Of a DNA stretch of 64,000 nucleotides, positions 8,626 through 54,256 are shown piece after piece. Position 1 is the first letter of the stretch; each line of letters begins with the position of its first letter. The notes under the pieces are model-generated. The model was not told the DNA's origin. It made no database searches and saw only the letters and a list, made by a program, of their open reading frames with translations. The stretch comes from Pseudomonadota bacterium (lineage in GTDB: Bacteria > Pseudomonadota > Alphaproteobacteria > Sphingomonadales > Sphingomonadaceae), in assembly GCA_018240865.1 (NCBI GenBank), contig JAFEEY010000042.1, forward strand, positions 14,545-78,544. Direction: 5' to 3'. The translations under genes and the position numbers were made by a program.

Positions 8626-8628
8626 AGC

Positions 8629-25269: not shown

Positions 25270-25270
25270 A

Positions 25271-26254: not shown

Positions 26255-26260
26255 TATCGT

Positions 26261-34924: not shown

Positions 34925-34960
34925 GGAGTTCTCGGCCTCGATCGCGGCCCATCGCCGCAA

Positions 34961-35835: not shown

Positions 35836-37119
35836 TTAGCGGGCGGCAAATCTCGTCGCCCCGCCGAACAGGCGGAGCGCGCGTGCCATCTCGTCGCGCA
35901 ACCGGGCCTTGCTGCCGACGATGAGCGTCGGCGCGAGGGGTTTCCCGCCGGGGTCGATGAAGCCGTGCGCGAGGGTGCCGTCCTGTTCGATCGAGACGAG
36001 ATGCCCCTTGCCGGGCGCCGGCCCCTGATAGCGCGCCGTCAGCTCGCCTAGCTTCGCAGTCAGGCCCTTGGTCGCCTTGGACCAACGGATGTGGCCAGCG
36101 CCGACATTGCTCCCGGCCTCGCGGCCTCGATCCATCCAGAGTTTCGCGTGCGCCTTGACCTGCAGCGGCGTGTTGCGCGTGCGTTCGCGATTCCGACAGG
36201 TTGGCAATGCGGCCGAATGGGTATCGAGAACCCGCAGATATTCGCCGTGCAGCGCGACAAGGATATCCTCGATGTCGATGCCGGCGAGGAGCGCGCGAAG
36301 CCGGTCCTCCTGCTCGGGACTGGCAATGAGCTCGTCGGCCCGCTCCGCCGTCAGTTCCTCGGCCTCGGGCTGCGCGGTCACACCGGATATGAAGCCCTTG
36401 GTGGCGGTGAGAATGATGGCGTGACCGCCGCAGCGGCCGCCTGTCTTACGATAGCGCTCCAAAATATCGCCTCGGCCGAGCGCCGCCGCCGGATGATCGC
36501 CCAGGATGATAACCCGCCGCGACCATGGTGTCGGTCGGGGCCGGTCGCTGGGTTTCGGCCAGTCCGAGGGTAGCGATCGCACCGCACCCCGCGACTGCAT
36601 CGAGATGGGCGCTCGTTCGGCAGCGCGATTGGCCCGGCGCGCCGCGTCGAAGAGATCATCAACGTCGCCGCCGCCGTCGGCGAACCCGCAGTCATAGGCC
36701 GGGCGTTCTGCGGCCTTGGACGGCGAACAATGGTTCCAACCTACATGGGCCGCGTACCAGCCATCGGCATAGCGGATCGCGAGATTCCAGTCATAACCAT
36801 AACGATCGCGTCCACGCAGGATCGCCGCATCGCGCTCATCACCGCGTCCTGAGACGGCGCGCTCCTCGGTGAAGCTGAAATTGCGCGCCTGGCGCTCGGC
36901 CTCGCTATGCGCGGCAATCGCGTCGTTGACGGGCTTCATCGCCTGGACGCGCGCGCGGGTGCGCGCCATGCGATCTTCAGGTGAAGCCGTCGGCGCCAGG
37001 TCCGGAAAGTCGCGCCAGGCTTTCGCGATCGCTTCGGCATGTTCCGGTGCGCGGCCCCGGGCCAGCCAGGTGGCAGTCGAACAGGGGTCGAACTGCGGGA
37101 TTTTTTCGACATGGATCAT
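35836..37119 (-). CDS. Hypothetical protein (427 aa)
   Basis: Long coding-like ORF in the array. ATG verified. Confidence 0.55.
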   Translation of the reverse strand: MIHVEKIPQFDPCSTATWLARGRAPEHAEAIAKAWRDFPDLAPTASPEDRMARTRARVQAMKPVNDAIAAHSEAERQARNFSFTEERAVSGRGDERDAAILRGRDRYGYDWNLAIRYADGWYAAHVGWNHCSPSKAAERPAYDCGFADGGGDVDDLFDAARRANRAAERAPISMQSRGAVRSLPSDWPKPSDRPRPTPWSRRVIILGDHPAAALGRGDILERYRKTGGRCGGHAIILTATKGFISGVTAQPEAEELTAERADELIASPEQEDRLRALLAGIDIEDILVALHGEYLRVLDTHSAALPTCRNRERTRNTPLQVKAHAKLWMDRGREAGSNVGAGHIRWSKATKGLTAKLGELTARYQGPAPGKGHLVSIEQDGTLAHGFIDPGGKPLAPTLIVGSKARLRDEMARALRLFGGATRFAAR

Positions 37120-37139: not shown

Positions 37140-37784
37140 TCAGGCGAAGAGGCGCATCGGCTGTTCGACCGGCGGCGTGAGACGAAGGTCGCGCCGCAGA
37201 CGGTCGGCGAAACGGTCGGGCGCCATGAGATCATTGACCGATGCCCAGTGATTGCGCGCGCCGCAGTGATCATCGCGGCCACGAACCCGGCGATAGAGGA
37301 CTTCCCGGCCCGGGCCCGAACAGCCAAGCGAGAGCTGCACCCATGCTTCCTCGCCATGGAGCGTGATTTCGCCGGAAACCGCAGGGCCGCCCTTGCTGGA
37401 GCGGATGTCATAGGTTCCGTCGCATAGGCCCAGCGCGTCGGCGAGGCGCCGCATTGCGGTGCGGCCCTCCGAATGGAAGAGCCGCTTGGCGGCCTCGTCA
37501 TGGCTCACGCCCCGATAGGCGAGGTTGCGCAGGACCGGCGTTCGGCGGATTTCGGCGATCTGGTCCATGCAGGTGCGCCGAAGCTCGAGATTGGACGGAC
37601 GATCTTCGCACACTGCGCTGAGGTGGCGAACGAGCAGGATCACGGCGGGATCGGTTTCGGCGTCTTTGCCGGCGTTGCGGCAATCCTTGATCGCGGCTCC
37701 GATCGCGTGGAGGGTGGTGCCGACGGTGATCAGCGCGCTGGGGTCGAGCGCCTGCTGGTGGCGCATGGCGACGTCGTAAGTCAT
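37140..37784 (-). CDS. Hypothetical protein (214 aa)
   Basis: GGAGGG SD 8 nt upstream of the ATG. Confidence 0.55.
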   Translation of the reverse strand: MTYDVAMRHQQALDPSALITVGTTLHAIGAAIKDCRNAGKDAETDPAVILLVRHLSAVCEDRPSNLELRRTCMDQIAEIRRTPVLRNLAYRGVSHDEAAKRLFHSEGRTAMRRLADALGLCDGTYDIRSSKGGPAVSGEITLHGEEAWVQLSLGCSGPGREVLYRRVRGRDDHCGARNHWASVNDLMAPDRFADRLRRDLRLTPPVEQPMRLFA

Positions 37785-37877: not shown

Positions 37878-38636
37878 TCAAGCAGCGATCGGTAGCGGGA
37901 TCGGCACGGCCTGCCCGGTGGCGATATTGATGAACGCGCCCGCGTGGCCGATCGATCCGCGGCCAACGAGATCGAAGAGAAGGGCCAGCGCGTGGCTCGC
38001 CACCACCCGGTTCACGAAAAGCGACTGGCGCTCGAGGGCTTCGGCCATCGAGCACGACGGCGCGTCGTCGTCAGGCAGGCTCTCGTTCGCGACCTCGGGG
38101 AAATATTCGAGGACTGTCGGGAGGATCTGGTGCCCGGCCTCGGGCTCAGCGTTCGGGCAACCGATGATATATTGCCCGTCGCCAGCGCGGTTGCCGAGAT
38201 CCAGCCAATAGGCCGGCGCATTCCTGGCCGAGGCGATGGCCGCACCGACGCTCCGGCGCGCCGATGCGGTATCGACACAAGTGATGACGATGTCGGTGCC
38301 GTCGAGCTTCGCGGCCTCGGGTGCCCGGCCATGCACCGCCGTCCAGGCCAGACCGTGGGCGAGATTGATCCGCTCGGTTAACGTCCGGGCCTTCGAGTTG
38401 CCGATGTCGCACCTGAAGAAGGGCTGCCGGCCAAGATTGGCCTCGCTGACGATATCGTCGTCGACGACGGTTACATCGAGCGAACGCGACGAAATCGCCC
38501 GCAGCGCCGTATCCAGCGAGGCGAGCCCCATCAGCATCTGCGCGCCGTTGCCGCCGCATCCCACAAGCACGATTTTGATCGCGCGGTTGCCGAGCGCCGC
38601 AGGCAGATAGTGGCGAAGGGGCGTCTCAGAGGTCAT
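37878..38636 (-). CDS. PRTRC-system ThiF-family E1-like protein
   Basis: Rossmann motif (VLVGCGGNGAQ). ATGA overlap with the JAB gene. Cassette context. Confidence 0.85.
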   Translation of the reverse strand: MTSETPLRHYLPAALGNRAIKIVLVGCGGNGAQMLMGLASLDTALRAISSRSLDVTVVDDDIVSEANLGRQPFFRCDIGNSKARTLTERINLAHGLAWTAVHGRAPEAAKLDGTDIVITCVDTASARRSVGAAIASARNAPAYWLDLGNRAGDGQYIIGCPNAEPEAGHQILPTVLEYFPEVANESLPDDDAPSCSMAEALERQSLFVNRVVASHALALLFDLVGRGSIGHAGAFINIATGQAVPIPLPIAA

Positions 38637-39286
38637 GATCGTCTCCTGAAAAAAGGGCTTCGCGGCAGCGGGAGGAACATCCCTCCGGCGCACAGTCGCG
38701 AGGCAAATGCGGGGCCGTCCGTATGACCCAGACGTCCGACAACCAGGGCGATCTTGGTCGCGTGCGCGTCGTCCGCGTCGTCGGTTGCGCTGAAGAAGGC
38801 CGCGCCGTGCCCATGGCTGTGAATGTCGCAGATGAGGTGATGGTGCGGCGGCAGCGCAGGCGGACGATAAGTGAGGTGTGACGGCGTCGCGCGGTCGATC
38901 TGGGGGAAGTCGACCCAGAATCGCCGATTAGCCTCATCCCAGAGGATGAAGGCGGCGGCCTCGTTGGGCAGCGCGGCGCGAAAGTGCTCGAGGACTTGCC
39001 GCAGCAGCTCCGCCGGTATCAAGCCGCAACGCAGGTCCGCGCGGCGAACTCCAATGCTCCCGTAGGGCAGGTAGGCCGGGATCGGCGGTGTCACGGGCAG
39101 ATCCAGAGCCAGCCAGGCCCGGCGCAAGATCAGGCAGACACCATCGCGGCCGATTGCGAGGCAGCTGCCTGCTCGGGCTTCGCGAACGGCCTCGATCGCG
39201 GGTGATCGCCCATCCGGCGGCACGGGATAGCAAGGCGCCTCCGCCAGTACCGCGGCGGCGGTCGGGTCTTCGGCGAGGGCAGTCAT
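38633..39286 (-). CDS. JAB/MPN metalloisopeptidase (PRTRC protein A position)
   Basis: Complete JAMM motif HSHGHGAAFFSATD (HxHx7Sx2D). Confidence 0.8.
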   Translation of the reverse strand: MTALAEDPTAAAVLAEAPCYPVPPDGRSPAIEAVREARAGSCLAIGRDGVCLILRRAWLALDLPVTPPIPAYLPYGSIGVRRADLRCGLIPAELLRQVLEHFRAALPNEAAAFILWDEANRRFWVDFPQIDRATPSHLTYRPPALPPHHHLICDIHSHGHGAAFFSATDDADDAHATKIALVVGRLGHTDGPAFASRLCAGGMFLPLPRSPFFRRRS

Positions 39287-40113
39287 CGGCCGGACCTTCC
39301 GTAGATGAGGTCGCCGAGCGTCACTGGGTCGGCCTTGGCGGCGCCTCGCGGGGCGGTCTGGCGACGATCTCCGAGGAACGGCCTCAAGCGTTTGACCGGG
39401 AAGCGGGTCGCGCGGGTCGCTGCGAGGGTGTCCCAGAGACGCACGAGACCGCCCTTCCCCGTGATCGTCAGCTCCTGACCCGGATTCGGATGGGTCGACC
39501 AGGAGTCGAAAAGCGCGCGCTCGAACTCGGGAATGGCGGACACATCCAGCGATGTCGGCTTCGGAATGTTACCCCAGCAGAGGGAACCGTTGAGGAAGAC
39601 GTTGAGGATCGGCGAATGAAGCAAGGCGGTTTCGGCCGCGGGCCGCTCGTTCCGCTCAAGCGCAAAGACTCCAAGCCGGCGCCGTGTGGCGACAAGGACG
39701 TGTGCCGGATAGGCAACCGGGACGATCGCGCGGCCGCCAAGCGCACGCAGTCCAGCCAGTTTCGCCGAGAGGTCGAAATAGGCCGTCCTCACCTGTGCGG
39801 GCACCCACCAGACCAGCAGGTCGGGATGGGCGACAAGCACCGTTTCGGGGAGAATTTGCGGCGGGGCGACGCGGCCGAGCGCCTGCGACCAATGCCGCAG
39901 ATGCGCCCGGGTCAAAGGCGTTCCAGCGGCGATGGTCGGCGCGCCGATAGCGTCGTGCTCGATCTGATGGATGCTGGCGAATGCCTCGGCATCTTCGCCA
40001 GGGGTAAGATGCGAGCCGAGGCCGCGAGCCCCGTCGCTTCTGTAGAGCAGGATGGCGTTGGTCAGCATCATGCCGCCTGCGGTTCGCTCGAACTGCACGC
40101 AATGGTCAGTCAT
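39283..40113 (-). CDS. PRTRC protein B position, E2/UBC-like candidate
   Basis: Cassette order. Conserved-looking Cys in NGSLCWGN. ATG 40113 lies 10 nt after the upstream stop. Confidence 0.55.
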   Translation of the reverse strand: MTDHCVQFERTAGGMMLTNAILLYRSDGARGLGSHLTPGEDAEAFASIHQIEHDAIGAPTIAAGTPLTRAHLRHWSQALGRVAPPQILPETVLVAHPDLLVWWVPAQVRTAYFDLSAKLAGLRALGGRAIVPVAYPAHVLVATRRRLGVFALERNERPAAETALLHSPILNVFLNGSLCWGNIPKPTSLDVSAIPEFERALFDSWSTHPNPGQELTITGKGGLVRLWDTLAATRATRFPVKRLRPFLGDRRQTAPRGAAKADPVTLGDLIYGRSGR

Positions 40114-40123
40114 GTCGGCCTCG

Positions 40124-41212
40124 TTATTCGGGAGGATAGAGTTCGATGAGATGTTTGGCGGCCCGCAGCAGCCGCGCGCCGGCGGCGAGTGACGCATGCC
40201 AGACATCGATCGCGGTGGAGTGCGTCATTGGGCAAAGGCCCGTCACGTCCATGAAACCATATTCCATGCCGTGACGCCCGACGTCGTCGACCTCGACCGC
40301 GAACTGTTCGACGGGAACGAGTGTCAGCGGCGGAAGCGGCGAACATTCCTCGATACCGGGGACATATTCGTAGAGAACATCCATCTCGAGGCGCCAGGCG
40401 TGATGTTCGTCAGGCAAATTGGTGAGCGCCGCGTGGGCATCCCGCAATTCGCGCAGAGCCCGACGAAGGGCAGTCGGTAACTTCGACGTGGGCGCTGCCC
40501 TCGCGGCGAGCATCCATTCTGGCCGCCTGGCGTTCATTTCGGACGGCATGGTCTGGGCCGCGATCTCGCTGTCGTCAGCCCCATGGAGCGCAACGAGGGC
40601 CTCGCGCGCAGCGGCGTCCTCGGTCTCGCCGTCCCAATAGTACATCGAGATGTTGTCGAAGAGGTCATCGTAGCAGAAGATCGGGAGAGCACTTCCGAGC
40701 GTGCGCTCGAGCACCCGATACGCAGCCGCGCGCCACGGGATCGGCCGCTTGCTGTCCTCGATCCATCCGAGATCGAGCTGCCCGACACTGTCGCAGACGA
40801 TCGCGACCGCCGGCGCCCCGCAGGATTCGCCGTTGAGCACGACGACGCGCAGGTCCGCGATCGTGCAGCTCCGCAAGCTTTCGAGGACCTCGGTCTGGAA
40901 GACCCGTTCGATATGTCGGCGCGCCTCAGGGCGCGTGCGGTGCACTGTCTCCTGCTCTTTCGAGGCGACCCAACTGCCGACGAGCTTATGGTGGGCCGCC
41001 AAAGGTCGATCGAACATCACCGGAATATCAGGGGAGATATGGACGGTCCGTCCTGCCAGATCAGCCGAGCGGAGGAAGGGAGAGTCCTGTGGGTGGCGGG
41101 ATAGGATCGGCAGGACCATCCTCGCGCGTGCCCGCGTCGAGGATGATCTTCGCATGGAGGGCCTGGGCTTGTTTGCTGCAGGCAGGCCGGGAGAGTTCGG
41201 AAGTGTTGCCAT
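40124..41212 (-). CDS. PRTRC protein F position (unknown function); start 41212 or 41119
   Basis: Cassette order only. Confidence 0.5.
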   Translation of the reverse strand: MATLPNSPGLPAANKPRPSMRRSSSTRARARMVLPILSRHPQDSPFLRSADLAGRTVHISPDIPVMFDRPLAAHHKLVGSWVASKEQETVHRTRPEARRHIERVFQTEVLESLRSCTIADLRVVVLNGESCGAPAVAIVCDSVGQLDLGWIEDSKRPIPWRAAAYRVLERTLGSALPIFCYDDLFDNISMYYWDGETEDAAAREALVALHGADDSEIAAQTMPSEMNARRPEWMLAARAAPTSKLPTALRRALRELRDAHAALTNLPDEHHAWRLEMDVLYEYVPGIEECSPLPPLTLVPVEQFAVEVDDVGRHGMEYGFMDVTGLCPMTHSTAIDVWHASLAAGARLLRAAKHLIELYPPE

Positions 41213-41286: not shown

Positions 41287-41493
41287 TCAGCCCTTGGTGC
41301 CGACAGCTCGGCGATATTCGGTGACGTGGACACCGCCAGTAACCCCGGCATCGACCAGGTCGGCATTGAGGATCGCCGGGTAGAGGGTGGCGTGGTAGGC
41401 GCGCAGCCCCTGCGGGTCATTGGCAAGGTGCGGCGGCTGCGGGAGGTCGATACCGTCATAGCGGTAGACGCGGGCAAGATGGTCGATCTGCAT
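41287..41493 (-). CDS. Small ubiquitin-like candidate (PRTRC protein C position), 68 aa ending in Gly
   Basis: Size, position next to E1/E2/JAB genes, and C-terminus ...AVGTKG immediately before the stop. Confidence 0.6.
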   Translation of the reverse strand: MQIDHLARVYRYDGIDLPQPPHLANDPQGLRAYHATLYPAILNADLVDAGVTGGVHVTEYRRAVGTKG

Positions 41494-41538: not shown

Positions 41539-41970
41539 TCACCAGAGGCTGGCGGGCTCCTCCGATTTTGCATCGGCCGGCAGGGCGCCCGCCGCTGGCG
41601 CGGCCGGCGTGCTCGCTGCGACTACCGGCTTGGCGGGTGCCGATGCCGCCTTTGCCTTCGCCGCCTCCGCAGACGCCGCGCGCGCGGCCTCGGCCGCGTC
41701 CCGCTGGGTCGCGATCTGATCGGCAAGCGCCATGCGTGTGGCAATCAGCCCACCGAGCGCCCCCTCGGCGCCCTTCGCAAGCTCTGCATCGATCTCGGCG
41801 GCCGTCGCTGTGATCGAGATCGGACGCAGCTCGCCGGCCTCGGCCTTGTGCGTTTTGCCTTCGGCGACGCGGGGAATGATGATGAGGGTAACGACACCGT
41901 CATCGCCGGCGACAAGATCGAAGGCGAGCGAATAGTTGCCCAGCATGGGCAGAAGATTGGTGATCAGCAT
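41539..41970 (-). CDS. PRTRC protein E position (Ala-rich C-terminal tail)
   Basis: Cassette order. AAGGAA SD. Confidence 0.5.
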   Translation of the reverse strand: MLITNLLPMLGNYSLAFDLVAGDDGVVTLIIIPRVAEGKTHKAEAGELRPISITATAAEIDAELAKGAEGALGGLIATRMALADQIATQRDAAEAARAASAEAAKAKAASAPAKPVVAASTPAAPAAGALPADAKSEEPASLW

Positions 41971-42003: not shown

Positions 42004-43623
42004 TCAGGCGGCCAGTTCGGTGACAACCTCGTCGGCCTTGGCGGGCGGAAGCGAATTGGGCGGCGCATAGCGGCCATCGAGGGCCATCGCGCTTGGCACC
42101 CGGCCAGCCCAATCGAACCCGACAGCATTCAACATGCCGGAGATCAGGTCGCCCTTCTTGGCGCCGAGCAACTTTGCGAATGCCTTCTCGCCCATGTGCG
42201 CGACCAGGCCGCTCTCGGCGGCAATGAACTTGAGCTCGTCCTTCGTGTATCGTTCGAGAAAAGCGCGATCGACCTGCCAGACTGTCCGGATGTCGATGCC
42301 GAAGGCGCCGGCGAGATCGGCGACGTGCGCGAACGACTGGACGTCCCGGGCATATGCTGCCCCGATCGCAGCCAGCACCGTGGTGGCCTGAACTTCCGAT
42401 AGCTCGCGGATCTCTGCGATCTTTTCCTTGAAACCGCGATCGGGGAACGCGGCGTCGACCAGCAGTGCAGCGCGCGAGGTCAAAGTGCCTGACTTGATGT
42501 GCGAAAGCGTGCCGGTCAGCGCTGCCACGAGGATCGCCGCCTGGGCGTTCAAAGGATCGTCGGCCAGCCCGCGGGCGAGCGCCGTGCGCCATGTCGCCTC
42601 CCGCAGGTCGGTCGTGCGGCCTGCGATGGACTTTGCGGTAACACTGGGCCCGGTGCTGGTGGAAACCTTGCGCACGACGGTTCCGCGACCGACCAGAGGT
42701 GCTGAAGGCGCTGCGTCATCGGTCAGACCGCCGATCTCACCTCCGTCCTCGTTTTCGTCGCCATCGTCGGCGAGAGCGTCATCATCGCCGTCATCGTGTT
42801 CGATCGCTGCGGCGGCGTCCTCGGCCTCGGCGGCCGCCTCCGCATCACGGCGTGCAGCTTCGACCGCCTCGGTCTTTAGCTGGAAGCAGGTAGCGTTGGT
42901 GCAGTGGCCATCGTCGACATGGGTGTCGAACAGGGCGCGCTGCGTCCCTGAATTGAACGGACAGGTGGTGCATTCCGTTTTGTCGAACAGGGCATCGGCG
43001 AGGCGCTGCGTGACCTTCATGAGAAGATCGCGGGTCTTTGCGATGTCAAGGCCGGCCGCGATGATCGTCTCGAGCGCCTTGTCCTGCTTGTCGGCGGGAA
43101 CGGCGGCGAGCAATTCGGCGTGTCCGACCTTGATCCGGCGCTCGTCGAGCGCGGTTTTGACGGTCTCGGAAAGGTCGGCGAGCGCGAGCCGGCGGTCCAG
43201 CTTTGCGCGGGACCAGCCAAGCCGCCGTGCAGCTTCAGCCCGGTCGCCTTGGCACGCCGCGAGATAGCGAACGGCCGCGTCCGCCTGCTCGGTCTCGGAA
43301 GGATCATCGCGATCGTCGTTTTCGGCAATCGCCGCGTCGAGCGCCTCCTGGTCGGTCATCTCCCGGATCAGGACCGGCACCTCGGCGTTTTCGCCGAAGG
43401 CTTCCATTGCGGCCCGGTAGCGGCGACCGCCCGCGACGATCGTGAAATGCTCCGGCAGGTCGGCAGCGGGCCGAACCAGCATCGGCTGCAGCATGCCTCG
43501 CAAACGCAGGGAGGCGACGAGTTCGTCATGCTTCTTCCGGTCGAAATAGCGGCGCGGATTATAGCCCACGGCAATCCGGGCGAGCGGGACCATGGCGGTC
43601 CCGACAGGGTGCGATGCGGTCAA
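42004..43623 (-). CDS. PRTRC-system ParB-family protein
   Basis: ParB N-terminal domain (VPLARIAVGYNPRR...GMLQPMLVRP). TTG start 6 nt after an AGGAGA SD. Confidence 0.85.
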   Translation of the reverse strand: MTASHPVGTAMVPLARIAVGYNPRRYFDRKKHDELVASLRLRGMLQPMLVRPAADLPEHFTIVAGGRRYRAAMEAFGENAEVPVLIREMTDQEALDAAIAENDDRDDPSETEQADAAVRYLAACQGDRAEAARRLGWSRAKLDRRLALADLSETVKTALDERRIKVGHAELLAAVPADKQDKALETIIAAGLDIAKTRDLLMKVTQRLADALFDKTECTTCPFNSGTQRALFDTHVDDGHCTNATCFQLKTEAVEAARRDAEAAAEAEDAAAAIEHDDGDDDALADDGDENEDGGEIGGLTDDAAPSAPLVGRGTVVRKVSTSTGPSVTAKSIAGRTTDLREATWRTALARGLADDPLNAQAAILVAALTGTLSHIKSGTLTSRAALLVDAAFPDRGFKEKIAEIRELSEVQATTVLAAIGAAYARDVQSFAHVADLAGAFGIDIRTVWQVDRAFLERYTKDELKFIAAESGLVAHMGEKAFAKLLGAKKGDLISGMLNAVGFDWAGRVPSAMALDGRYAPPNSLPPAKADEVVTELAA

Positions 43624-43698
43624 GGCGGTTCTCCTAGTGAGAATGGCGGTGCACGCGCTTGCTCGCGACGCGCACCCTTTCGGTGAGCCTGATGCTCA

Positions 43699-43720
43699 CC
43701 CTTCCACTCCCCCTCCCCTT
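43699..43720 (-). repeat. CCCCCTCCCC box
   Basis: Exact core at 43709-43718, directly after the DpdA-like stop. Confidence 0.5.
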
Positions 43721-44734
43721 TCACCGCTCCGCCGTCTGGTCATGGAAGATGTCGGCCGCCCATTGCTCGAGCCACGGCTCGAACATCTCATCATGATCAA
43801 GATCGCCGGACTCGATGAGATCGCGGATTTGGGTACGGGCCTGCGCGATTGCGGCCTCCCAGGGATCGATCGGCGGAGGATCTGCGTCAGCAGGCCGTTG
43901 CTGCGGAAGGCGGCGCGGCCGCTCGGTTAGTCGGTGGTACTGACCGGCGAGCCATTGCTCCATGTAATCGGCCACGACGCGATCGGTCTTGGAGATCCCC
44001 GCCTTCAGGGCTGCCCGACGCGCACCGACGCCATAGGCCTGGCTGTCGATCGACGCGACCCGGTGTGCGAAAGGCAGAAGGAAGGGCAGTGCCGTGCCCT
44101 TGACGCCGAATGCGTGGAGCAGAACACCGGCCGGAAGAATCTGATCGAGATGGTCGATGACCGCGATCAGGCCTTCCGGTCCGTGAATATCGCGCCGGCA
44201 CATGCTTCCGACACCGATCAATGCGCCGGGGCGGAGCGAACCCCAGAGCGCATCGACACAGCGCTCATAGTCGGATGGTCGCCGGCCCTGGATCACAGGC
44301 ATCAGTCTGTCGGCTATTCCGGCATCCTCGCCCAGGATGCGGCAGTCGCGATTGGCGCGGATGGTGCGCGACAGGCGGTCGAAGACTTCGTCGCGATCTC
44401 GCGCGATCTCAGCCTCGACGCAGTAATCGGCACTTGCCCACCATTGGAATGGATAGGCCGCCGCGAGCGATACATAGTCCGACAGGGACCACGGGAAGCC
44501 ACCATAGCGCGCAGTCGCGACGAAGCCTGCGGAGTCCAGGCAGAGGCCGGACAAACCCCGTGCATTCTGGAGTTGCCCCAGGCGCCATCCGGTCCATTCC
44601 CGCCAGCCGCGCTTTTCGGACCAACGTGAAAGCGCGTTCGCCGAGATGAGCGCGGTCCGGCCAAGCGCGCGTGCCCGCTGAAGGATCGGCCCATCGTTCA
44701 GGTGCGGAAGGCCGACGATGACGTTGATGGGCAT
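43721..44734 (-). CDS. tRNA-guanine-transglycosylase-fold protein, DpdA-like
   Basis: CLDSAGF, ASADYC, PVIQG, IGVGSMCRR, LHAFGVKG and SIDSQAY occur in the order of the TGT/DpdA catalytic motifs. By eye only. Confidence 0.55.
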   Translation of the reverse strand: MPINVIVGLPHLNDGPILQRARALGRTALISANALSRWSEKRGWREWTGWRLGQLQNARGLSGLCLDSAGFVATARYGGFPWSLSDYVSLAAAYPFQWWASADYCVEAEIARDRDEVFDRLSRTIRANRDCRILGEDAGIADRLMPVIQGRRPSDYERCVDALWGSLRPGALIGVGSMCRRDIHGPEGLIAVIDHLDQILPAGVLLHAFGVKGTALPFLLPFAHRVASIDSQAYGVGARRAALKAGISKTDRVVADYMEQWLAGQYHRLTERPRRLPQQRPADADPPPIDPWEAAIAQARTQIRDLIESGDLDHDEMFEPWLEQWAADIFHDQTAER

Positions 44735-44771
44735 GATGCGCGCTCCGCTCGCAACGGAAGCACGCGGACAA

Positions 44772-44800
44772 TTGACGGTCGCGCATGTTCACGTTACGTT
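44772..44800 (+). promoter_or_regulatory. Possible sigma70-type promoter for 44822-45457
   Basis: TTGACG - 17 nt - TACGTT, about 20 nt upstream of the AGGAGA SD. Confidence 0.25.
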
Positions 44801-44821
44801 CTAATGAGTAGGAGATTTGCC

Positions 44822-45457
44822 ATGACGACGCCCAGCATCCGACACCTGTTCGATCTCGACATAACGCTGCGGGATGCGGCGCTGGATATGGAGAACCGGC
44901 CGACCCGTCGGATGATCGCCAATGCGGCGATCGGCATTCATGTCGAGGACGCCTACTATTCGGTGCGGGAGCTGCGCGAGGCGGTAAGCTGGGTGCATGA
45001 AGGGGTTTCGGCGGGCAAGCTGAAGCTGGCGGAGATCCTGGGCAATGATGGTGCCGACGATTTTCAGCGCTGCATCTATTTCTGCCTCGCCGGCCGCGGC
45101 GTGGTGTCGATGCTCGACGATCTTGAATGGCTGGAGGATCTGCTGGAGCGGCGCGGGCGCATCGCAGGCGAACAGAAGCGCCTGAAGGAGACGGTGATGC
45201 CGCTCGTGAACCCCTATGTGGCCGACGCGCCCGATGGGCCGTTGGTCAGGATGGACGGAAATTTCGAGCAGGGACCATCTTGGTGGCCGACCCGACTTTG
45301 TCGGCCTGACCATCAGCGCTCGCAGCTCAGGCGGTTCCCGTGCCGCCAGCGCGACGGTTCGATCCAGTCTCCGGCAAAGGCCCCTGCCCTTTGCCTCCTG
45401 GCCGAAGCGAAGGCCGCATTATATGCGCGCAGGCGAGCGGGATCGTCTCTGAGATAA
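44822..45457 (+). CDS. Hypothetical protein; its last ~48 codons overlap the convergent nuclease gene
   Basis: Good SD and ATG. The C-terminal tail is Arg-rich and junk-like. Confidence 0.4.
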   Translation: MTTPSIRHLFDLDITLRDAALDMENRPTRRMIANAAIGIHVEDAYYSVRELREAVSWVHEGVSAGKLKLAEILGNDGADDFQRCIYFCLAGRGVVSMLDDLEWLEDLLERRGRIAGEQKRLKETVMPLVNPYVADAPDGPLVRMDGNFEQGPSWWPTRLCRPDHQRSQLRRFPCRQRDGSIQSPAKAPALCLLAEAKAALYARRRAGSSLR

Positions 45458-45816
45458 CTCGCCTGCGGGGTCGCGAGACCCGCGCGGATAAGACGCTCTC
45501 CCAAATCCGCGCCGTCGACTGTAACGACCGCAACGGGGCGGCCATAAGAAGACGAAGACACGAGCCGGATCGTCGCGGCCTTGGAACGCAGGGCGTTCGC
45601 GGCGAAATCCTGTGCGGCCTTCCCACACTGCCAACATCCCGAGGCGCGCCGACAGAGCTGCCCGCGCTCGAATGCGTCGACCCCAAGCAACCGGAAATCG
45701 ACGGCCACGGTATCGCCATCGAGCGCCCGCGCCTTCGCGTCGAAACTCTGAGACCATGAGGGCGATGCGAGAGCGGCTCCGCCCGCGAGGATGATGGCCG
45801 CCGCGATCCGGATCAA
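45313..45816 (-). CDS. Secreted thermonuclease (staphylococcal-nuclease family)
   Basis: Signal peptide (IRIAAAIILAGGAALASPSWS). LDGDTVAV...RLLGVDAFE motif. TTG start overlaps the upstream TGA. Confidence 0.8.
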   Translation of the reverse strand: MIRIAAAIILAGGAALASPSWSQSFDAKARALDGDTVAVDFRLLGVDAFERGQLCRRASGCWQCGKAAQDFAANALRSKAATIRLVSSSSYGRPVAVVTVDGADLGERLIRAGLATPQASYLRDDPARLRAYNAAFASARRQRAGAFAGDWIEPSRWRHGNRLSCER

Positions 45817-46055: not shown

Positions 46056-46664
46056 TCATGCAAAGATCGTCTTGTGAACCTTAGTGACCGGCAGGATCGT
46101 CCAGTCGCGCTCCATGAACCGGCTGATCGCATAGCCGCAGCGAGTCGCGGGATCGCGGAAACTCAGGCGGCGGCCGCGCTTCACGACGATAAATTCGTCA
46201 CCCACATGACCATCGGAGAAGGTCAGCGCCTGGGCCAGTTTGATCCGGTCGCCGTCCTCGATCTTGCGCGATCGGCGGGCCAGGTTGGCACGGCACCGCG
46301 CGCGCCAGTCGAGGGCGTGCTCCCGGTCGGTCGGGGTCAGAAGGTCGAGAATGTGGCGGGGACAGCTATCCTCATAGGGGCCGACAGATTCGTCCATATC
46401 CTTGTAGCCGAAATGCTCGCCGGACTTGCTTTTGGGATTCCACATCACCTTGCAGACGATCGCGAAAACCTCCTTGCCGACGCCGTCGATCATCACCTGA
46501 GCCGCAGCATAATAGGTGCGATTCTGGGGGCAGGATGAGGCGAGCACCTTCAGTCCCTTGATCGTCCCGTCCGCCTCGCGGCTATAGGTGAATTGCGCGT
46601 CCAGATAATCCTTGGCGGTCTTGTGTCCGCCCATGTGGAAACGGGACATGGTGAGCCAGCCCAT
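46056..46664 (-). CDS. Hypothetical protein (202 aa)
   Basis: Coding-like ORF. ATG verified. Confidence 0.55.
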   Translation of the reverse strand: MGWLTMSRFHMGGHKTAKDYLDAQFTYSREADGTIKGLKVLASSCPQNRTYYAAAQVMIDGVGKEVFAIVCKVMWNPKSKSGEHFGYKDMDESVGPYEDSCPRHILDLLTPTDREHALDWRARCRANLARRSRKIEDGDRIKLAQALTFSDGHVGDEFIVVKRGRRLSFRDPATRCGYAISRFMERDWTILPVTKVHKTIFA

Positions 46665-46707: not shown

Positions 46708-47649
46708 TCAGGCCGCCTCGAGGATCTGCCTGACCCCCTCGGCCGATGACGCCGTGTCGTCGCTGTCGCCAAACGCCAGAAGGTAGTTGAAGGCCTGCTC
46801 AGCTTTCGAGGCGGCGTGAATGATTGCGGTCTTGTCCGCGCGCAAAATGCCGAGCCAGTGGGCGACGTAGCTCGCATGATTGTCGTGCAGTTCGTTCGGC
46901 AGATCCAAATGCGCGCAAATCAGGCCGCTTCCGATCTCAGCCACAAGCTCCTCGAAACTATAAGCTTTGTCGCCGAACCGCTTGCCGAAGGTCCGGGCAA
47001 GGCGCGAGCTGCCGCCTGACCAATGAACGGTCTCGTGTGCCCTCACCGAGGCGTAATGATCCATCGTTGTGAATGACCGCCGGTGCGGCATCTGGATGAA
47101 ATCAAATGTCGGGTGGAAGAAGGCGCGATCGCCGCCATGTCGAACATCTGCCGGCACATGATCGAAGAACTCGTCGATGGCAGCTTGCCGCGCAGATGGA
47201 TCGATCGGCGCAGGGGTCGCGTCGTCCGGATAGAAATAGGCGGGCAGCCCATCGATCTGATCGGCGTTGAACACGAGATAATGGCGAAGGAAACGAATGC
47301 TGCGTTCGCTCTCGGCACCGGTCACCCGGTCCGACTCGGTCTTTTTGAAGCTCGAATAATAGACCGAGAGCGAGCCGTGCTCCCCCCGGCGAACATGGCC
47401 GCCGAGCGCTTCGGCCTGGCGATACGTCATCCAGTAGCGCGAGCGATAGCCGTTCGCGTCTGCGATCGCCCAAAGATAGACCGTGTTGATCCCGGTATAG
47501 GGCGTGCCGCAGTGTCGGAGCGGACGGCCACCGGCGCCGGCAACCCGCCAGGGCCGAGTCCAGGGCGGGACGCCTTCTTCCAGCTTTCTGATGATGAGGT
47601 TGGTGATTTCGGCCGCGACGTCGCGGCTCGGACGGGCTTTCGCAGGCAT
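46708..47649 (-). CDS. ardC: ArdC-type antirestriction protein (ssDNA-binding N-domain plus zincin metallopeptidase)
   Basis: N-terminus (ITNLIIRKLEEGVPPWTRPW) and HETVHWSG (HExxH). Confidence 0.88.
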   Translation of the reverse strand: MPAKARPSRDVAAEITNLIIRKLEEGVPPWTRPWRVAGAGGRPLRHCGTPYTGINTVYLWAIADANGYRSRYWMTYRQAEALGGHVRRGEHGSLSVYYSSFKKTESDRVTGAESERSIRFLRHYLVFNADQIDGLPAYFYPDDATPAPIDPSARQAAIDEFFDHVPADVRHGGDRAFFHPTFDFIQMPHRRSFTTMDHYASVRAHETVHWSGGSSRLARTFGKRFGDKAYSFEELVAEIGSGLICAHLDLPNELHDNHASYVAHWLGILRADKTAIIHAASKAEQAFNYLLAFGDSDDTASSAEGVRQILEAA

Positions 47650-47750: not shown

Positions 47751-49856
47751 TCAGGCTTCGACCGGCTCGATCACCGTATCGTCCGCGACCGAAGCGCCTT
47801 CCGCCATGTGATCATCCGACAACGCAGAGCGATCCGGCTCGCCACCGAGACGATCGGTCGGGCACGGGGCCGCAGCACCAAAGCGCATCGCGTCCGGCAC
47901 CCATGCGAGCACAGCGTCCTTCGTCTCGGGCTCGACAATGGCCGCCCCGGCGAAGAGTTTTTCACAGCTCTCCGAGATCTCCGCCTTCTTCAGGGTGGCG
48001 TGCCGAGCCGTCAGCGCGCCGCCGCCGACGTCATGAAGCAGGCTCAAAATGCTGCCCTTGTTGACCCGATCGAAGAAGTTTTCCGCGGTCGGACGCCACC
48101 AGCTCGCAACGTCGATCTCGAGGATCGAGGCCAATCGATTGTGGATCGCGACCTGGCCGCTGGCCCCGCGCGGCTTGGCCTCGATCGACATGGCAACGAT
48201 ATAGGCCAGCCACTGCGCCTTGCTGTCGTCATCGAGCGCGCGAAACCCTTCGAACCGATCGATTTCGTGATCGTGGTCGCACCATCCGGCATCAAGGCCA
48301 TCATGCGCTTCGGCCAGGTAGGACCGGGCGCGTGAGCCGGGCAAATCCGCCGTGACGGGATCCTGCGGGGCATCAGCGCAGATGGTGGTGCCATATTGAA
48401 CGATCTCGTCGGCAGAACCGCCGCCGGCGAAAACCCGGGCGTCGATCATGACGAACAGCGCGTAATCGAGCGCGAGCGCCGGCTGAGCGAGCAGACAGGA
48501 TGCGAGAATATCGCGGCGTTGTATGGCAAGCTCGTCGTAGAGCCGATTGCTGAGCGGCTTGCCGCCAGGTGCCACAGCTTCGGGTCGGCGAGCTGGCTCG
48601 GGCGAATCCTTCACGCCGACGCGAAACCTGCCCGCCCCGCCCTCGTCGGGTTCGCCGGGATTTCCGCCGCCCGCATCATCGATCGCGTCGGGTTCTTCGA
48701 CGATGAGCTCCTGCTCGCTATAAAATTGGGTGTCGAGACGCATCTCGCCCTGCGGCGTCAGAAGCAGAAACGCGCCGACATGCGGCCGCAGCTCATCTGG
48801 CAGCACGGGCGCGCGATGCTCGATCGCCTCGGCCTCGGCGATCAGTCGGTCATCCTCCTGGTCCAGGGCCTTGTAGGCATCGGGCGAGATGGATTCGTCC
48901 TGCATTTCGGCCTCGAGCTCGGCGCGGCGCGCCTCGATCTCGCCAAGGCGGGCGGATTGCTCCTCGGTGAGCGCGGGCGGCTGCAGGATGGCACGGTAGA
49001 GGCCGTGGGCGGCGTTGTGGGCGTAGTTGCTGGCGATCGGCCTGATCCAGGCAAGGCCCGTCTCCTCACCGATGCGTCTCGCTTCGGCCTCCATGATGTC
49101 GCCGGCGAGACGGTGCGCGATCTCGGGATTGTTCCAGCGGTCGTTGCCGTCGGTGAAGAGGTCGCCATCGACCTTGCCGCCTGCCGCGCGATACCGCTCC
49201 TCGCCGACCAGAATCGCGATCGGATCGCTGGCCTTGAGCGTCTCATTGGCGATGACGCGGCGGATGGTGTCGGCCGTTACGTGGCCATTCTGGTAGCTGT
49301 TCCAGACCAGAAGCTGCTTGTCGTGGCTTTCGGTCGACGCATAGGCTTTGGCGATGTCGAGCGTGATCTCGCTTTTGCTCAAGGCGTCGAAGATCGGCGC
49401 TGCCAGCGAGGCGAGGCGCAGGCGCCCCTCGACGAAGCGACGTGTCACGCCGAAACGCTTTGCGACAGCATCGAGATCGCCGGTCGAGCCGATGAAGTGC
49501 TGAAAGGCGCGGCATTCCTCGGCGGGGGTCATCTTGAGCTGATGGAAGTTGGTCGCCGTGGACGTTTCGGACAATTCGGCATCGTCGCCGGTAAGGATCA
49601 TGACGGGGACATCGAAATCGGCTTCCGAGATCGTACCGCGCTCGGCGAGCAGGCGAAGCGCGCGCCAACGGCGTCCGCCATCGAAGACCTCGAAGGTGCC
49701 GCGCGGCTTTTTGGCGGGCGTGACGAGCAGATTCTGAAGGACGCCCTTGGCCTCGATACTGGCGGCCATGGGTTCAATCTGAAGCTGTTCGTCCGGTGCG
49801 GTACGGACGTTGATCGGCGAGAGCCGCAGCTTGGCGAGTTTGATGGTCTGGATCAC
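47751..49856 (-). CDS. Large ParB-like nuclease-domain protein
   Basis: IQTIKLAKLRLSPINVR...GVLQNLLV is a ParB N-domain. GTG 49856 lies 8 nt after a GAGGAG SD; the ORF track starts at 49898. Confidence 0.8.
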   Translation of the reverse strand: MIQTIKLAKLRLSPINVRTAPDEQLQIEPMAASIEAKGVLQNLLVTPAKKPRGTFEVFDGGRRWRALRLLAERGTISEADFDVPVMILTGDDAELSETSTATNFHQLKMTPAEECRAFQHFIGSTGDLDAVAKRFGVTRRFVEGRLRLASLAAPIFDALSKSEITLDIAKAYASTESHDKQLLVWNSYQNGHVTADTIRRVIANETLKASDPIAILVGEERYRAAGGKVDGDLFTDGNDRWNNPEIAHRLAGDIMEAEARRIGEETGLAWIRPIASNYAHNAAHGLYRAILQPPALTEEQSARLGEIEARRAELEAEMQDESISPDAYKALDQEDDRLIAEAEAIEHRAPVLPDELRPHVGAFLLLTPQGEMRLDTQFYSEQELIVEEPDAIDDAGGGNPGEPDEGGAGRFRVGVKDSPEPARRPEAVAPGGKPLSNRLYDELAIQRRDILASCLLAQPALALDYALFVMIDARVFAGGGSADEIVQYGTTICADAPQDPVTADLPGSRARSYLAEAHDGLDAGWCDHDHEIDRFEGFRALDDDSKAQWLAYIVAMSIEAKPRGASGQVAIHNRLASILEIDVASWWRPTAENFFDRVNKGSILSLLHDVGGGALTARHATLKKAEISESCEKLFAGAAIVEPETKDAVLAWVPDAMRFGAAAPCPTDRLGGEPDRSALSDDHMAEGASVADDTVIEPVEA

Positions 49857-49897
49857 CGGGGTCACTCCTCTTGGCGTCCGGCAATTCCCGGACACCA

Positions 49898-49922
49898 CCC
49901 CGTTCCCCCTTCCCTCTTTCCC
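49898..49922 (-). repeat. Variant box CCCCGTTCCCCCTTCCCTCTTTCCC
   Basis: The minus strand has four G-runs. Lies between the methylase-helicase stop and the ParB-like start. Confidence 0.45.
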
Positions 49923-49961: not shown

Positions 49962-52900
49962 TCACCCAGGATCGGCGAGAATGCGCCCAAGGATGTCGGC
50001 GGCGATGCTCACCGGAAGGAACACCCGTGTCCGGTACTGAATGATCTCGGTGAAGCAGCCCAAGGATTTCAGCCAGGCGAGCTGATCCGACGGCGCCCCG
50101 ACTATCTCGATGCGATGATTTCGGTTCACCATCGCGCGGCGGATCGTCATGGGGAATGGGCGGGCAACATCAACGCTTCGACCGGAATGGGCCGATTTGA
50201 TGATGTCCGAGGGCGGCAGGTTCTCGGCGCGATCGATGCCGAGCTTGGTGAAAAGCTGGACAACGTGCTCGTCGAAAACGAGGCGGCCGAGCCAGCTATT
50301 TCCCGCTTTGTCAGCGATGCGGTTGACCACCAGATGATCGCTGGGCAGCGCCGACCAGATCGGCAGAAGCAAGCCGGTCGCGAGGCGGATCGTCTCGGTG
50401 TCGACCTTGTTCGCCGCTTCATCGGCTTCGGCCTGCCATTTCGCGCAGAAGGCGTCCCGATCGACTATTTTCCAGGCGCTCTCGAAGAGCTCATGCTCGC
50501 GGATATATTCCCGCCGGGTCGGCCTCGTCAGCTCGAAGCGCGGGATCGGCGTTCCGTCCTTCTCCTCCATGAGCGCTCGGGCGCGGGTCTGCAGCGCGAC
50601 CATCCCCGACTTGGCGTTGAGCAGAAATACGGCGGTGCTATCGCTGTCGGCGATACGCAGCACGCGCTCCAAGGTGACAGGGGTCCGCCGCCGCGCGATC
50701 TCGATGGTCAGCAAGTGCGACGTCGCCCCGCTGACCGGGTCGGTCCGGAGCAGTGTGTCGTCGATCAAGGTGGCGGAATCGACGAGGATCGTCTCGACAC
50801 CGACATCGAGCCGGCCAGCCTCCCTCGCCGCCGATACCCGTGTCTCGACCAGGGACAGAAACTCATCGAAGATGCTGTTCTGCAGGCCGATGGGAAGCGC
50901 GAGGATGCGATTTAGCCATCGCTGGATGGGCGGCAGTTCCTCTTTCAGGACGCCGTCCTTGTCGCAGAGCTCGAGACCGGTCCGATCCTCGAATTCCGAA
51001 TGCGAGATGCTCTTGAGCTTGCCATCGACCAGCAAGTGGAACCACGTCACCAGCGCAGCGCAAGCATATTCGCTCTCCAGATTATCAGCCGGGTCGAAGA
51101 GATTCTGACCGCCGGTCTGGCGCTGACCCCGTGTGAGTGCGCCGAGGCTGTCGAGCCGCCTCGCAATCGTGCTGGTGAAGCGGAGTTCGCCTTTGCAGTC
51201 GGTCGTGACGGGCCGGAACAGTGGCGTGCTCGCCTGATGGGTCCGATGGGTTCGGCCAAGGCCCTGAATGGCGCGGTCCGCGCGCCAGCCCGGCTCGAGC
51301 AACAGATGGACGCGTTGCTCCTGGTTCGGCACGTCCATTGATGCGTGATAGGATCGCCCCGTCCCGCCGGCGTCCGAGAAAATGAGGACGCGCTTCAGCC
51401 CCTGCATGAAGGCCGCGGCCTCGGCCTGACTGGTACGGGTCGAACGGGTTTCCAGCTTCTGCCGGCCGTCGCCCGTCGAGATTAGGCGTTTTGTCCGCCC
51501 AGTGACTTCCGCGACACGATCATGCCCGAAATGCTCCAGGATGCCGTCGAGCGCCGACATGATCGGCGGCAATGCGCAAAGATGCTCGATCATCAGCGCG
51601 CGGGCAGCTTCGGCTTCGGGATTGTAGACGGGATTACCCGTCTCGTCCGTCATCGGCTCGGAGCGCTGCGTGCCTGTGTCGTCGGTGAAGACGCGCATTT
51701 GGCGAGTAGGGAAAGCGCGCTCGAGATAATCGATGACATATTCACGAGGGCTGAGGTCGATTTCGAGGTCGACGCGCTCATCCGGGCTGAGCATGCCCAA
51801 TCGCCGGTCGAGGATGGACTCGGCCGTCGTCACCAGTTGAAGCACCACCGACTGGCCCGCCATAAGATGCTCGCCGACCGCGGCGATGACCGTTGGCAGC
51901 TTCATCGAAAGCAGCGCCTGGCCGAAGAAACGCTGCTTGGTGGACTCGAAGCGCGAGCGGGCCGATGCCTTCGCCCCGCTATTCAAAGTGGTGTTCTCGA
52001 GACCATCGACGACGCCGGTGAGTTCCAGGGCTTTTTCCATGTTCCGGTGGATGATGGACCAGGCATTGGCGTAAGTGTCGTAGATCTCGATCTGCGCGGG
52101 CGTCAGTTCGTGCCGCAGGATCTCATATTCGACACCGGCGAAGCTCAGCGCTCGCGCCATGTAGAGCCCAGTCGCCTTGAGATCGCGTGCGACCAATTCC
52201 ATGGCGGCGATCCCGCCCTGGCGAATGCTGGAGATGAATTGCTCGCGATTGGCGAACGCCGTCTCCGGTCCCCAGAGCCCGAGCCGCACGGCATAGGCAA
52301 GGTTGTTGACCTCGGACGCCCCCGTCGCAGAGGCGTAGAGGATCCGCGCGGCGGGCAGATGGTTCTGGAGCCGAACGCCGCTGATGCCCTGTTGCGATCC
52401 CTCCTTGGCTCCGAGTGCGCCCTCGCCTCCTGCGACACCGCCCATCTCGTGCGCTTCGTCGAAGGCGATGACGCCGTCGAAATCGGCGCCGGCCCAGTCG
52501 ATGATCTGCTTCAGCCGGCTATGTTCCCCGCGCATCGATCGAAGGGTCGGATAGGTGACCAGAAGGACGCCCTGGTCAAGCCTGATGGGTTCGTCGATCT
52601 TCCAGTTCGATATGGGCTGAATGTCACCGGCGAGCCCGCCGAGGGCCGTCCAATCACGGCGAGCATCTTCGAGGAGGGGCGCGTTCTTGGTGACCCAGAT
52701 ATTGCGACGCCGCCCCTGAAGCCAGTTGTCAAGAATGGCGGCCGCGATTTGGCGACCCTTGCCTGCCCCGGTTCCGTCCCCGAGGAAGAAACCCTTTCGG
52801 TAGCCGCGGCCCTCCTCCGAGATAACGAGGCCGACACCATCCTTGTCCGGTGCGAAGCGCCCAGGGATCGTCTGAGCCCAGGCATGGCCGGCGTAAACGA

Positions 52901-54185: not shown

Positions 54186-54226
54186 TTGGGAATCTCCTGC
54201 GCGGCTGCATCTGTCGCAGCGACACA

Positions 54227-54256
54227 CCCTCGATCCCCCTCCCCTCTCTCCGCCCC
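54227..54256 (-). repeat. CCCCCTCCCC box
   Basis: Exact core at 54235-54244, between the toprim gene stop and the methylase-helicase start. Confidence 0.5.

Follow-up and report, generated by a model that had tools for sequence, protein, structure and literature searches.

A zinc-less DpdA-like transglycosylase gene in the anti-restriction array of a conjugative sphingomonad plasmid

Modification of DNA with 7-deazaguanine has so far been established for phages, where it serves anti-restriction, and for chromosomal Dpd islands, where it serves restriction-modification. In the transglycosylase of the Salmonella island, DpdA, D95 is the general acid/base and D256 the nucleophile, while the base is recognized by D130 and H181 and stacked upon by F99; the D95A and D256A substitutions abolish exchange (PMC10164549). 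DpdA also occurs outside such islands: 76 phages carry DpdA only, and in E. coli the DpdA of phage 9g is by itself enough to place host preQ0 in plasmid DNA (PMC6884629). Here we describe a DpdA-like gene in a 64,000-nucleotide (nt) stretch of Sphingomonadaceae DNA (contig JAFEEY010000042.1, positions 14,545 to 78,544), hereafter the window. The gene (43721-44734, minus strand) encodes a 337-amino-acid (aa) transglycosylase of the tRNA-guanine transglycosylase (TGT) superfamily (Pfam PF23859, formerly DUF7221). We propose, at a probability of about one half, that this protein is a plasmid anti-restriction DNA guanine transglycosylase, from a zinc-less branch of DpdA, that uses 7-deazaguanine made by the host.

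Fold and predicted active site of the DpdA-like protein

An initial annotation, made from the DNA sequence, had placed the protein in the TGT/DpdA superfamily on the basis of six motifs. The coordinates and length it gave are correct and belong to a minus-strand open reading frame (ORF); the plus-strand reading of the same interval is interrupted by stop codons. All six motifs were found in the translation in the order described: LDSAGF (66-71), DYC (103-105), VIQG (147-150), IGVGS (173-177), HAFGVKG (207-213) and IDSQAY (229-234). The superfamily assignment holds too, with the catalytic residues intact, a matching fold and two profile matches: Pfam PF23859 'DpdA' (residues 64-248, E = 7.9e-14, 51.8 bits against a cut-off of 27) and phrog_1279 'queuine tRNA-ribosyltransferase' (E = 6e-19). 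Hundreds of relatives came up in a large-database search, and an exhaustive phmmer search at E up to 1e-3 gave 809 clusters at 50% identity. Their existing names in NCBI and UniRef include 'deazapurine DNA modification protein DpdA family protein' and 'DUF7221 family queuine tRNA-ribosyltransferase-like protein'. That the gene is DpdA/TGT-like is nothing new, since databases record it already.

To describe conservation we used 60 relatives with 30-87% identity. Invariant among them are D67, S68, G70, D103, E107, Q149 and G150; G174, G176, S177, C179, R180 and R181; and H207, F209, G210, K212, D230, S231 and R239. An AlphaFold (AF2) model built from this alignment reached a predicted local distance difference test score of 95.7 and a predicted template-modelling (TM) score of 0.92. 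Its 50 best Foldseek matches in the PDB are all TGTs or Salmonella DpdA (7ui4), at probability 1.00 and TM ~0.55. Zymomonas mobilis TGT comes first (E = 1e-8, TM 0.55), and 7ui4 matches at E = 1.7e-7. In BFVD, the best match is a mycobacteriophage Bella96 protein named 'queuine tRNA-ribosyltransferase', followed by other phage DpdAs, nt-1 DpdA2 among them. As modelled, then, the protein has the (beta/alpha)8 TIM-barrel fold of TGT. The kinship to TGT and DpdA in the PDB is seen only by fold comparison; a PDB sequence search and a search with the 60-sequence profile gave no match, 7ui4 not being found at E up to 10.

Motif mapping predicts D67 as general acid/base, F71 as the stacking residue, D103 with Q149-G150 as the base-binding residues and D230 as nucleophile. 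The invariant positions fall at the ends of consecutive predicted strands, D230 and D67 at those of strands 226-231 and 64-67, and F71 stands at +4 from D67. The distances between D67, D103, Q149 and D230 are 36, 46 and 81 residues, against 35, 51 and 75 for D95, D130, H181 and D256 of Salmonella DpdA. GVGSxCRR and E107 are invariants specific to the clade. The structural zinc site that TGT and DpdA carry after strand 8 (CxCxxC...H) is not present: cysteines occur only at 65, 105, 131, 159 and 179, and the 60-relative alignment shows no conserved tail cysteine within the proteobacterial clade. The chain consists of a basic TIM barrel (aa 1-249, isoelectric point 9.3) and an acidic three-helix tail (aa 250-337, isoelectric point 4.5).

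The gene in its plasmid array

Positions 25480-56969 of the window are 99.9% identical to part of a 256-kb conjugative plasmid of Novosphingobium capsulatum (MOBF, MPF_F), on which RefSeq labels the DpdA-like gene 'hypothetical protein'. The same stretch also has very close counterparts on plasmids of Sphingobium amiense, Rhizorhabdus and Sphingomonas. All genes between about 26 and 54 kb lie on the minus strand, except one divergent ORF, and read toward the end that holds the type IV coupling protein (T4CP; 22686-25388) and the MobF relaxase (19632-22682), also on the minus strand. The DpdA-like gene is about 18 kb from the T4CP end. Upstream of it stand genes for a strawberry-notch (Sno) helicase of 1421 aa (49962-54227; AAA_34 and Helicase_C_4) with an N-terminal NPPF methylase motif, a 715-aa ParB-like protein with a GGRRWRA patch (ParB715; 47751-49898), ArdC (46708-47649; ArdcN and zincin), DUF6927 (46056-46664) and a secreted SNase (45313-45816). 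Within the N-terminal ~400 aa of the Sno protein, EPSAGNG and NPPF are motifs typical of N6-adenine methyltransferases, a domain that Pfam does not call there. We tried the SNase as a restriction partner and rejected it: it has a signal-peptide-like N-terminus and is a common plasmid nuclease.

On the far side, beyond a PRTRC cassette, come genes for proteins of 214 aa (37140-37784) and 427 aa (35836-37119), a Mom-family DNA-modification protein (34981-35817; PF25680, E = 4e-25; phrog_1384, E = 1e-26), a PAPS-reductase-like PP-loop protein (33974-34960; phrog_424, E = 2e-23; no Pfam match), SSB (30122-30517) and a YspA/SLOG-domain protein (28246-29220; DUF2493 in RefSeq). The PP-loop of the PAPS-reductase-like protein has the variant form GIGVDS. 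Anti-defence genes of plasmid leading regions have been described in the same layout (PMC11541004). We presume that the origin of transfer (oriT) lies near 25.4-26.3 kb. A search for it failed: inverted repeats at 26158-26255 were uninformative, and nic-site motifs of R388 and F matched at chance level only.

For comparison we assembled 51 loci (L numbers below) with orthologues at 53-100% identity, all from sphingomonads. The upstream module of Sno, ParB, ArdC, DUF6927 and SNase is kept in most of them, as is the divergent ORF. We conclude that the DpdA-like gene is a backbone gene of a long co-directional array beside the T4CP and MobF genes of a MOBF/MPF_F conjugative sphingomonad plasmid.

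The initial annotation had the gene heading a PRTRC operon and raised a physical or functional link between base exchange and this ubiquitin-like (Ubl) system. A complete cassette does follow directly on the same strand. Its genes are ParB (42004-43623; TIGR03734, 405 bits; GGRRYRA arginine patch), E (41539-41970), C (41287-41493; Prok_Ub, ubiquitin-like), F (40124-41212), B (39283-40206; Prok-E2_D, E2), A (38633-39286; DUF2016 and JAB) and ThiF/E1 (37878-38693). It is a divergent cassette, with PRTRC_C at 42.5 bits against a cut-off of 45.95 and PRTRC_F at 19.7 against 58.4; ParB, A, B, E and ThiF score above their own cut-offs. The NCBIfam PRTRC models do not match the DpdA-like protein. With the TTG start of ParB at 43623, the spacer (43624-43720) measures the 97 nt first reported; with RefSeq's ATG start, the gap is 127 nt. 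The spacer contains an AGGAG ribosome-binding site and a hairpin (GGTGAGC-ATCAG-GCTCACC) without a T tract, and a scan found no terminator-like site between the two genes. As the first gene after a divergent promoter region, with no such site before ParB, the DpdA-like gene may literally head the operon here, but only in this plasmid lineage.

Does this adjacency reflect a partnership? Forty-four of the loci are informative on this point: PRTRC follows the DpdA-like gene in 12 and is lacking in 32. Its ParB begins about 100 nt after the gene in 11 loci and follows an 8.9-kb insertion in L004; in 10 of 11 PRTRC-bearing relatives with ParB directly downstream, the spacing is about 101-109 nt. 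All 12 PRTRC-bearing loci fall within a clade at least 75% identical to the query, and even there the distribution is patchy. Five contigs carrying a 63%-identical protein (P0097) likewise lack PRTRC. Where the cassette is missing, genes that lie beyond it in the window directly follow the DpdA-like gene, among them those for the 214-aa and 427-aa proteins (from +18 to about +1000 nt), the Mom-like and PAPS-reductase-like proteins, DUF3768, DUF736, SSB and DUF2493. The distance to these backbone genes is +1036 nt in L015, +194 nt in L028, +18 nt in L030 and L053-L057, and +9 nt in L045. PRTRC therefore behaves as a facultative unit, some 5.8 kb long, within an otherwise conserved backbone. We infer from these sequence comparisons that its place beside the DpdA-like gene is a lineage-specific adjacency produced by cassette insertion and that it is not a partner.

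A wider sample gave the same picture. In PLSDB, the DpdA-like gene occurs on 110 plasmids and PRTRC-B on 303, mostly separately and in largely different hosts. The former include Sphingobium (20), Sphingomonas (12), Paraburkholderia (9), Roseomonas (8), Streptomyces (8) and Mycobacterium (6); the latter include Pseudomonas (130), Burkholderia (32), Cupriavidus (21), Sphingobium (7) and Sphingomonas (5). Among distant homologues, only L061 (37% identity) has a ParB/E2/ThiF set nearby, at 6-10 kb, and the others sampled mostly have no PRTRC near them. A 'PRTRC system protein D' 9 kb from the homologue in Polaromonas JS666 was considered as a nearby cassette and dropped, since the E2 gene is 80 kb away. 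Hence the proposed link to the Ubl system does not hold: the DpdA-like gene and PRTRC share a habitat, the accessory regions of conjugative elements, and are not one unit.

Upstream of the DpdA-like gene lies an 87-nt divergent intergenic region (44735-44821) that presumably holds the promoters of both flanking genes; it is without a consensus sigma-70 match. A search around the gene for a preQ1 riboswitch, another riboswitch or any Rfam family found none. The divergent ORF (44822-45310, plus strand) represents a 162-aa family confined to sphingomonads and is present in 37 of the 51 loci, mostly directly adjoining the DpdA-like gene. It has no Pfam or PHROG match, and its all-alpha model (score 77 in the local distance test) has no Foldseek match. 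A 1-nt indel near 45286, seen in comparison with the N. capsulatum plasmid, swaps the last residues of this ORF and prolongs its frame to 45457, across the SNase gene on the opposite strand; the indel may be a real frameshift or a sequencing error. In two near-identical relatives, L003 (2057-2992) and L004 (1715-2650; 11516-12649), the DpdA-like match ends at residue 312, and insertion of a mobile element into the gene's 3' end is probable. A reverse-transcriptase gene is listed inside the matched 20-kb region of the related plasmid records of R. wittichii DC-6 and Sphingobium CFD-2.

Elsewhere in the window, an error-prone polymerase 'mutasome' cassette of ImuA, ImuB (Y-family) and DnaE2 (about 8338-14320, minus strand) is 76-79% identical to cassettes on many sphingomonad plasmids and is followed by a LigD-like region. 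A DUF4411 protein adjoins a helix-turn-helix (HTH) plus M78 (IrrE-like) peptidase (1356-3015, minus strand), which looks like a toxin-antitoxin or abortive-infection pair. That pair and an HNH endonuclease gene (7592-8302, minus strand) lie in a part of the window that the N. capsulatum plasmid does not share. A borderline Rfam tRNA match (62098-62174, plus strand; 31.8 bits against 29) comes immediately after the gene of a site-specific integrase (about 60.7-61.9 kb). It is not confirmed by ARAGORN and may be what is left of a tRNA-derived attachment site.

Base supply, proposed activity and alternatives

The initial annotation saw no genes for preQ0 or 7-deazaguanine synthesis in the window, and three checks agree. 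Pfam scans of the otherwise unannotated ORFs gave no QueC, QueD, QueE, FolE or QueF; tblastn of the window with the QueC, QueD, QueE and FolE proteins of phage Rosebush gave nothing below E = 0.03; and the RefSeq annotation of the 99.9%-identical plasmid, which covers window positions 25480-56969, lists no preQ0 genes. None occur in the inspected neighbourhoods of relatives either, and PF23859 overall is a family of 'singletons' carried by mobile elements. With no synthesis genes nearby, the enzyme therefore needs host-made precursors or another base, as had been noted. The order Sphingomonadales includes Z. mobilis, whose TGT is the structural model for the TGT of the queuosine pathway. The further remark that dpdB and dpdC partners are missing is right for DpdC and for a DndB-type DpdB, but two ParB-fold proteins with a GGRRxRA patch flank the gene.

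How could such an orphan serve its plasmid? We suggest that the enzyme would act on double-stranded plasmid DNA and would remove guanine through a covalent Asp230-deoxyribose intermediate, following the double displacement of TGT with D67 as acid/base. It would then insert a 7-deazaguanine made by the host; preQ0 would be the most likely base because no synthesis genes travel with the gene. The plasmid would thereby escape restriction in new hosts, as is thought for singleton phage DpdAs, and the exchange would be one of several anti-restriction devices in the establishment region. As a secondary and weaker element of the proposal, loading may be helped by a ParB-type NTPase, either ParB715 or the ParB of PRTRC, in the manner of DpdB with Salmonella DpdA. 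Besides the fold, the residues, the gene array and the phage 9g precedent, domain fusions speak for the proposal: three giant proteins (P0149, P0229, P0161) join the DpdA-like domain to a Mom-like one, and a fourth (P0230) joins it to the polyvalent-protein domain LPD1. Distant homologues on plasmids and other mobile elements likewise have N6 or C5 methylases, SSB, ParB and relaxases as neighbours. Fold, residues and gene context were determined as set out above; we infer DNA as the substrate, preQ0 as the base, the timing of the exchange and its benefit.

Several points weigh against this proposal. The DNA of mycobacteriophage Orion, whose gp20 is a clear member of the family, is without dPreQ0, dADG, dG+, dPreQ1 and dQ (PMC6884629); Orion is the only carrier of the family with a DNA test on record. 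Hutinet et al. 2019 attributed that result to the lack of a preQ0 pathway in M. smegmatis and raised a possible functional divergence of singleton DpdAs (PMC6884629). Relatives are nevertheless carried by 398 mycobacteriophage records. That about 400 mycobacteriophages keep the gene with no preQ0 to be had from M. smegmatis is a hint that its substrate or role is a different one. The literature we searched contained no PF23859 member with demonstrated activity. In phage Rosebush, 28% of G is replaced by dPreQ0, yet its validated DpdA1 (gp2) matches no Pfam family and has no detectable relation to the plasmid protein by hhalign (probability 0.5%); the label 'DpdA' on PF23859 is therefore homology-based. 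The plasmid protein lacks the zinc site and matched no model in NCBIfam and, at E up to 1, none in PADLOC, Dpd models included. Its catalytic residues were mapped by motif order, predicted strand positions and the hidden Markov model, which is not a superposition. A DndB-type DpdB is not present, the local ParBs being of the ParB_N/HTH_ParB type. Finally, oriT was not found, and the putative leading-region placement is drawn from gene content (SSB, ArdC, methylase/helicase) and orientation.

The main rival keeps base exchange and changes the product. PF23859 enzymes could install another guanine replacement, or perform one step of a hypermodification together with a Mom-like GNAT and a PP-loop enzyme, for example with subsequent acylation or amidation; we regard this as possible but unlikely. 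The Orion result and the persistence of the gene in phages of a host without the pathway fit it, as do the clade's own invariant GVGSxCRR and E107. The fusions with Mom-like domains, which occur in both orders, count for it as well. A Mom-like gene starts 9 nt after the DpdA-like stop codon in L045, and in L054-L056 an orthologue of the PAPS-reductase-like protein (72% identity; L054 9033-10004) overlaps the DpdA-like start codon. GNAT-TGT pairs, some of them fused, have been reported from BREX-related systems (PMC12839542), and DpdA subfamilies differ in substrate (PMC10516641).

Other evidence speaks against this rival. The guanine-recognition Asp and the Gln-Gly pair are fully TGT-like, which fits 7-deazaguanine, and the Mom-like and PP-loop genes are variable neighbours that are absent from many loci. 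In phage Mu, Mom uses Gly-tRNA to make N6-carbamoylmethyl-adenine; a Mom-like enzyme next to a DpdA-like one on a plasmid suggests that two separate base modifications are stacked. Moreover, Mom alone is a complete adenine-modifying enzyme (PMC13219725), so a DpdA-Mom fusion may just stack two independent anti-restriction activities. The PF23859 clade spans about 800 clusters at 50% identity on plasmids and other mobile elements, polyvalent proteins and about 400 mycobacteriophages. That this clade installs a guanine replacement beyond the known 7-deazaguanines, or carries out a base-exchange step with the Mom-like GNAT and PP-loop enzyme, so that conjugative plasmids would have a hypermodification undescribed outside phages, seems to us unlikely.

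Another question is whether a ParB-fold NTPase, ParB715 or that of PRTRC, is required for activity in the role of DpdB. Salmonella DpdA requires the ParB-like ATPase DpdB (PMC10164549), and the GGRRxRA patch is common to the two ParBs of the window. In L023 and L025-L027 a homologue of ParB715 immediately precedes the DpdA-like gene, other loci have it elsewhere within that module, and a ParB is found 1.7 kb downstream of the homologue in Azospirillum. In the record of the dPreQ0-containing phage Rosebush (L067 1-1946), gp1 is annotated as a 'ParB-like partition protein' and overlaps dpdA (gp2), ahead of queC/D/E and folE; by analogy, this pairing would parallel DpdB-DpdA. However, Rosebush gp1 has no Pfam match at E 0.01, the window ParBs are not DndB-type, a ParB is missing from the surrounding 10-15 kb of many homologues, the 9g enzyme needs no partner, and ParB-like genes are common in plasmid establishment regions anyway. 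Dependence on such a partner is thus improbable.

A role on RNA is very unlikely. The protein could be a tRNA-modifying TGT-like enzyme, or could sequester or consume queuosine precursors, and so alter translation in host or plasmid rather than DNA. The best structural matches are indeed tRNA-guanine transglycosylases, the TGT-type Gln-Gly and D-x-C are kept in place of the His of bacterial DpdA, and phage records name relatives queuine tRNA-ribosyltransferase. But the protein is without the zinc subdomain by which TGT holds tRNA (Ins8 is described in PMC10164549). Plasmids, phages and polyvalent proteins are the only places where the family occurs, beside DNA methylases, Mom and ArdC, and the 'tRNA' names are homology-transfer labels. 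Least credible of all is that the transglycosylase is a component or leader of the PRTRC system, with base exchange coupled through its ParB: the co-directional 97-nt gap, the conserved spacing and L061 speak for it, and it is already largely refuted by the loci without PRTRC, the abutting backbone genes and the separate plasmid hosts.

If plasmid-borne guanine exchange by a zinc-less DpdA is indeed at work here, plasmids would disguise guanines as well as adenines chemically, which would bear on how broad-host-range plasmids cross restriction barriers. 7-Deazaguanine as an establishment function of conjugative plasmids was not reported in the literature we searched. Also apparently undescribed there are the presence of a zinc-less clade of the DpdA family in the backbone of anti-restriction arrays on conjugative plasmids, the fusion of a DpdA-like domain to Mom-like domains, and the coupling of a DpdA-like gene to a PP-loop enzyme. 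The system offers a tractable route to the question of Hutinet et al. 2019 of what 'singleton' DpdAs do, since sphingomonads, unlike M. smegmatis, belong to an order with the queuosine pathway. The negative result has its own use: the apparent coupling of DpdA to a Ubl system is adjacency from cassette insertion.

Comparison with known systems

The mycobacteriophage singletons Orion gp20, LindNT gp39 and Agent47 gp85 share PF23859 and phrog_1279 with the plasmid protein and match the profile of the window family at E about 1e-32 to 1e-34 (4e-32 for Orion gp20). The PF23859 model is centred on them, with LindNT gp39 at 531 bits and Agent47 gp85 at 562 bits. They have the LDSGGF, D-x-C-E, QG, GVGSxCRR, HxFGVK and DSxAW motifs in common with the window family and are likewise orphans on a mobile element with no preQ0 genes nearby. 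They differ in being 258-310 aa long with a C-x4-C-x2-C cluster after DSxAW, whereas the plasmid protein has no Cys after 179 and ends in an 88-aa acidic helical tail; identity over the core is only about 35%. Judged by alignment, the cysteine cluster of the mycobacteriophage members is lost in the proteobacterial plasmid clade.

DpdA of Salmonella Montevideo (7ui4) has the same TIM-barrel TGT fold, with the acid/base Asp and Phe, the base-binding Asp and the nucleophile Asp in like order and spacing. It has a zinc site, a large Ins8 and His181, whereas the plasmid protein has neither zinc site nor Ins8 and carries Gln149 instead. The Dpd island is chromosomal and includes DpdB, DpdC and dpdD-K; here the setting is a conjugative plasmid, in which Pfam scans and RefSeq annotation revealed no such genes. 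With the phage DpdA1 enzymes (9g, CAjan, Rosebush), the plasmid protein would share its role, the post-replicative exchange of G for 7-deazaG that protects the DNA of a mobile element. DpdA1 genes usually lie beside folE and queCDE; the plasmid gene does not.

The TGTs of Z. mobilis and E. coli share the D-S-x-x-aromatic, D-x-C, Q-G, aromatic/Met-G-V and D-S/C motifs with the window protein. hhalign pairs its MPVIQG with FGIIQG of E. coli TGT, in an alignment that is not significant by itself. The predicted equivalents of D67, D103, Q149-G150 and D230 are D102, D156, Q203-G204 and D280 in Z. mobilis TGT and D95, D130, H181-G182 and D256 in Salmonella DpdA. TGT has the CxCxxC...H zinc subdomain and the plasmid protein does not; its substrate would be DNA.

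Neither the survey of polyvalent proteins (PMC5512222) nor that of leading regions (PMC11541004) mentions a TGT/DpdA-type domain, and the literature we searched neither mentions DUF7221 nor links DpdA to the plasmid leading region. To the anti-restriction genes known from leading regions (ArdC, orphan methyltransferases, SSB), the plasmid gene is tied by its neighbours: ArdC, SSB and a methylase/helicase belong to the same co-directional array beside T4CP and MobF. With polyvalent proteins it shares its domain, which occurs in giant proteins together with LPD1 and Mom domains.

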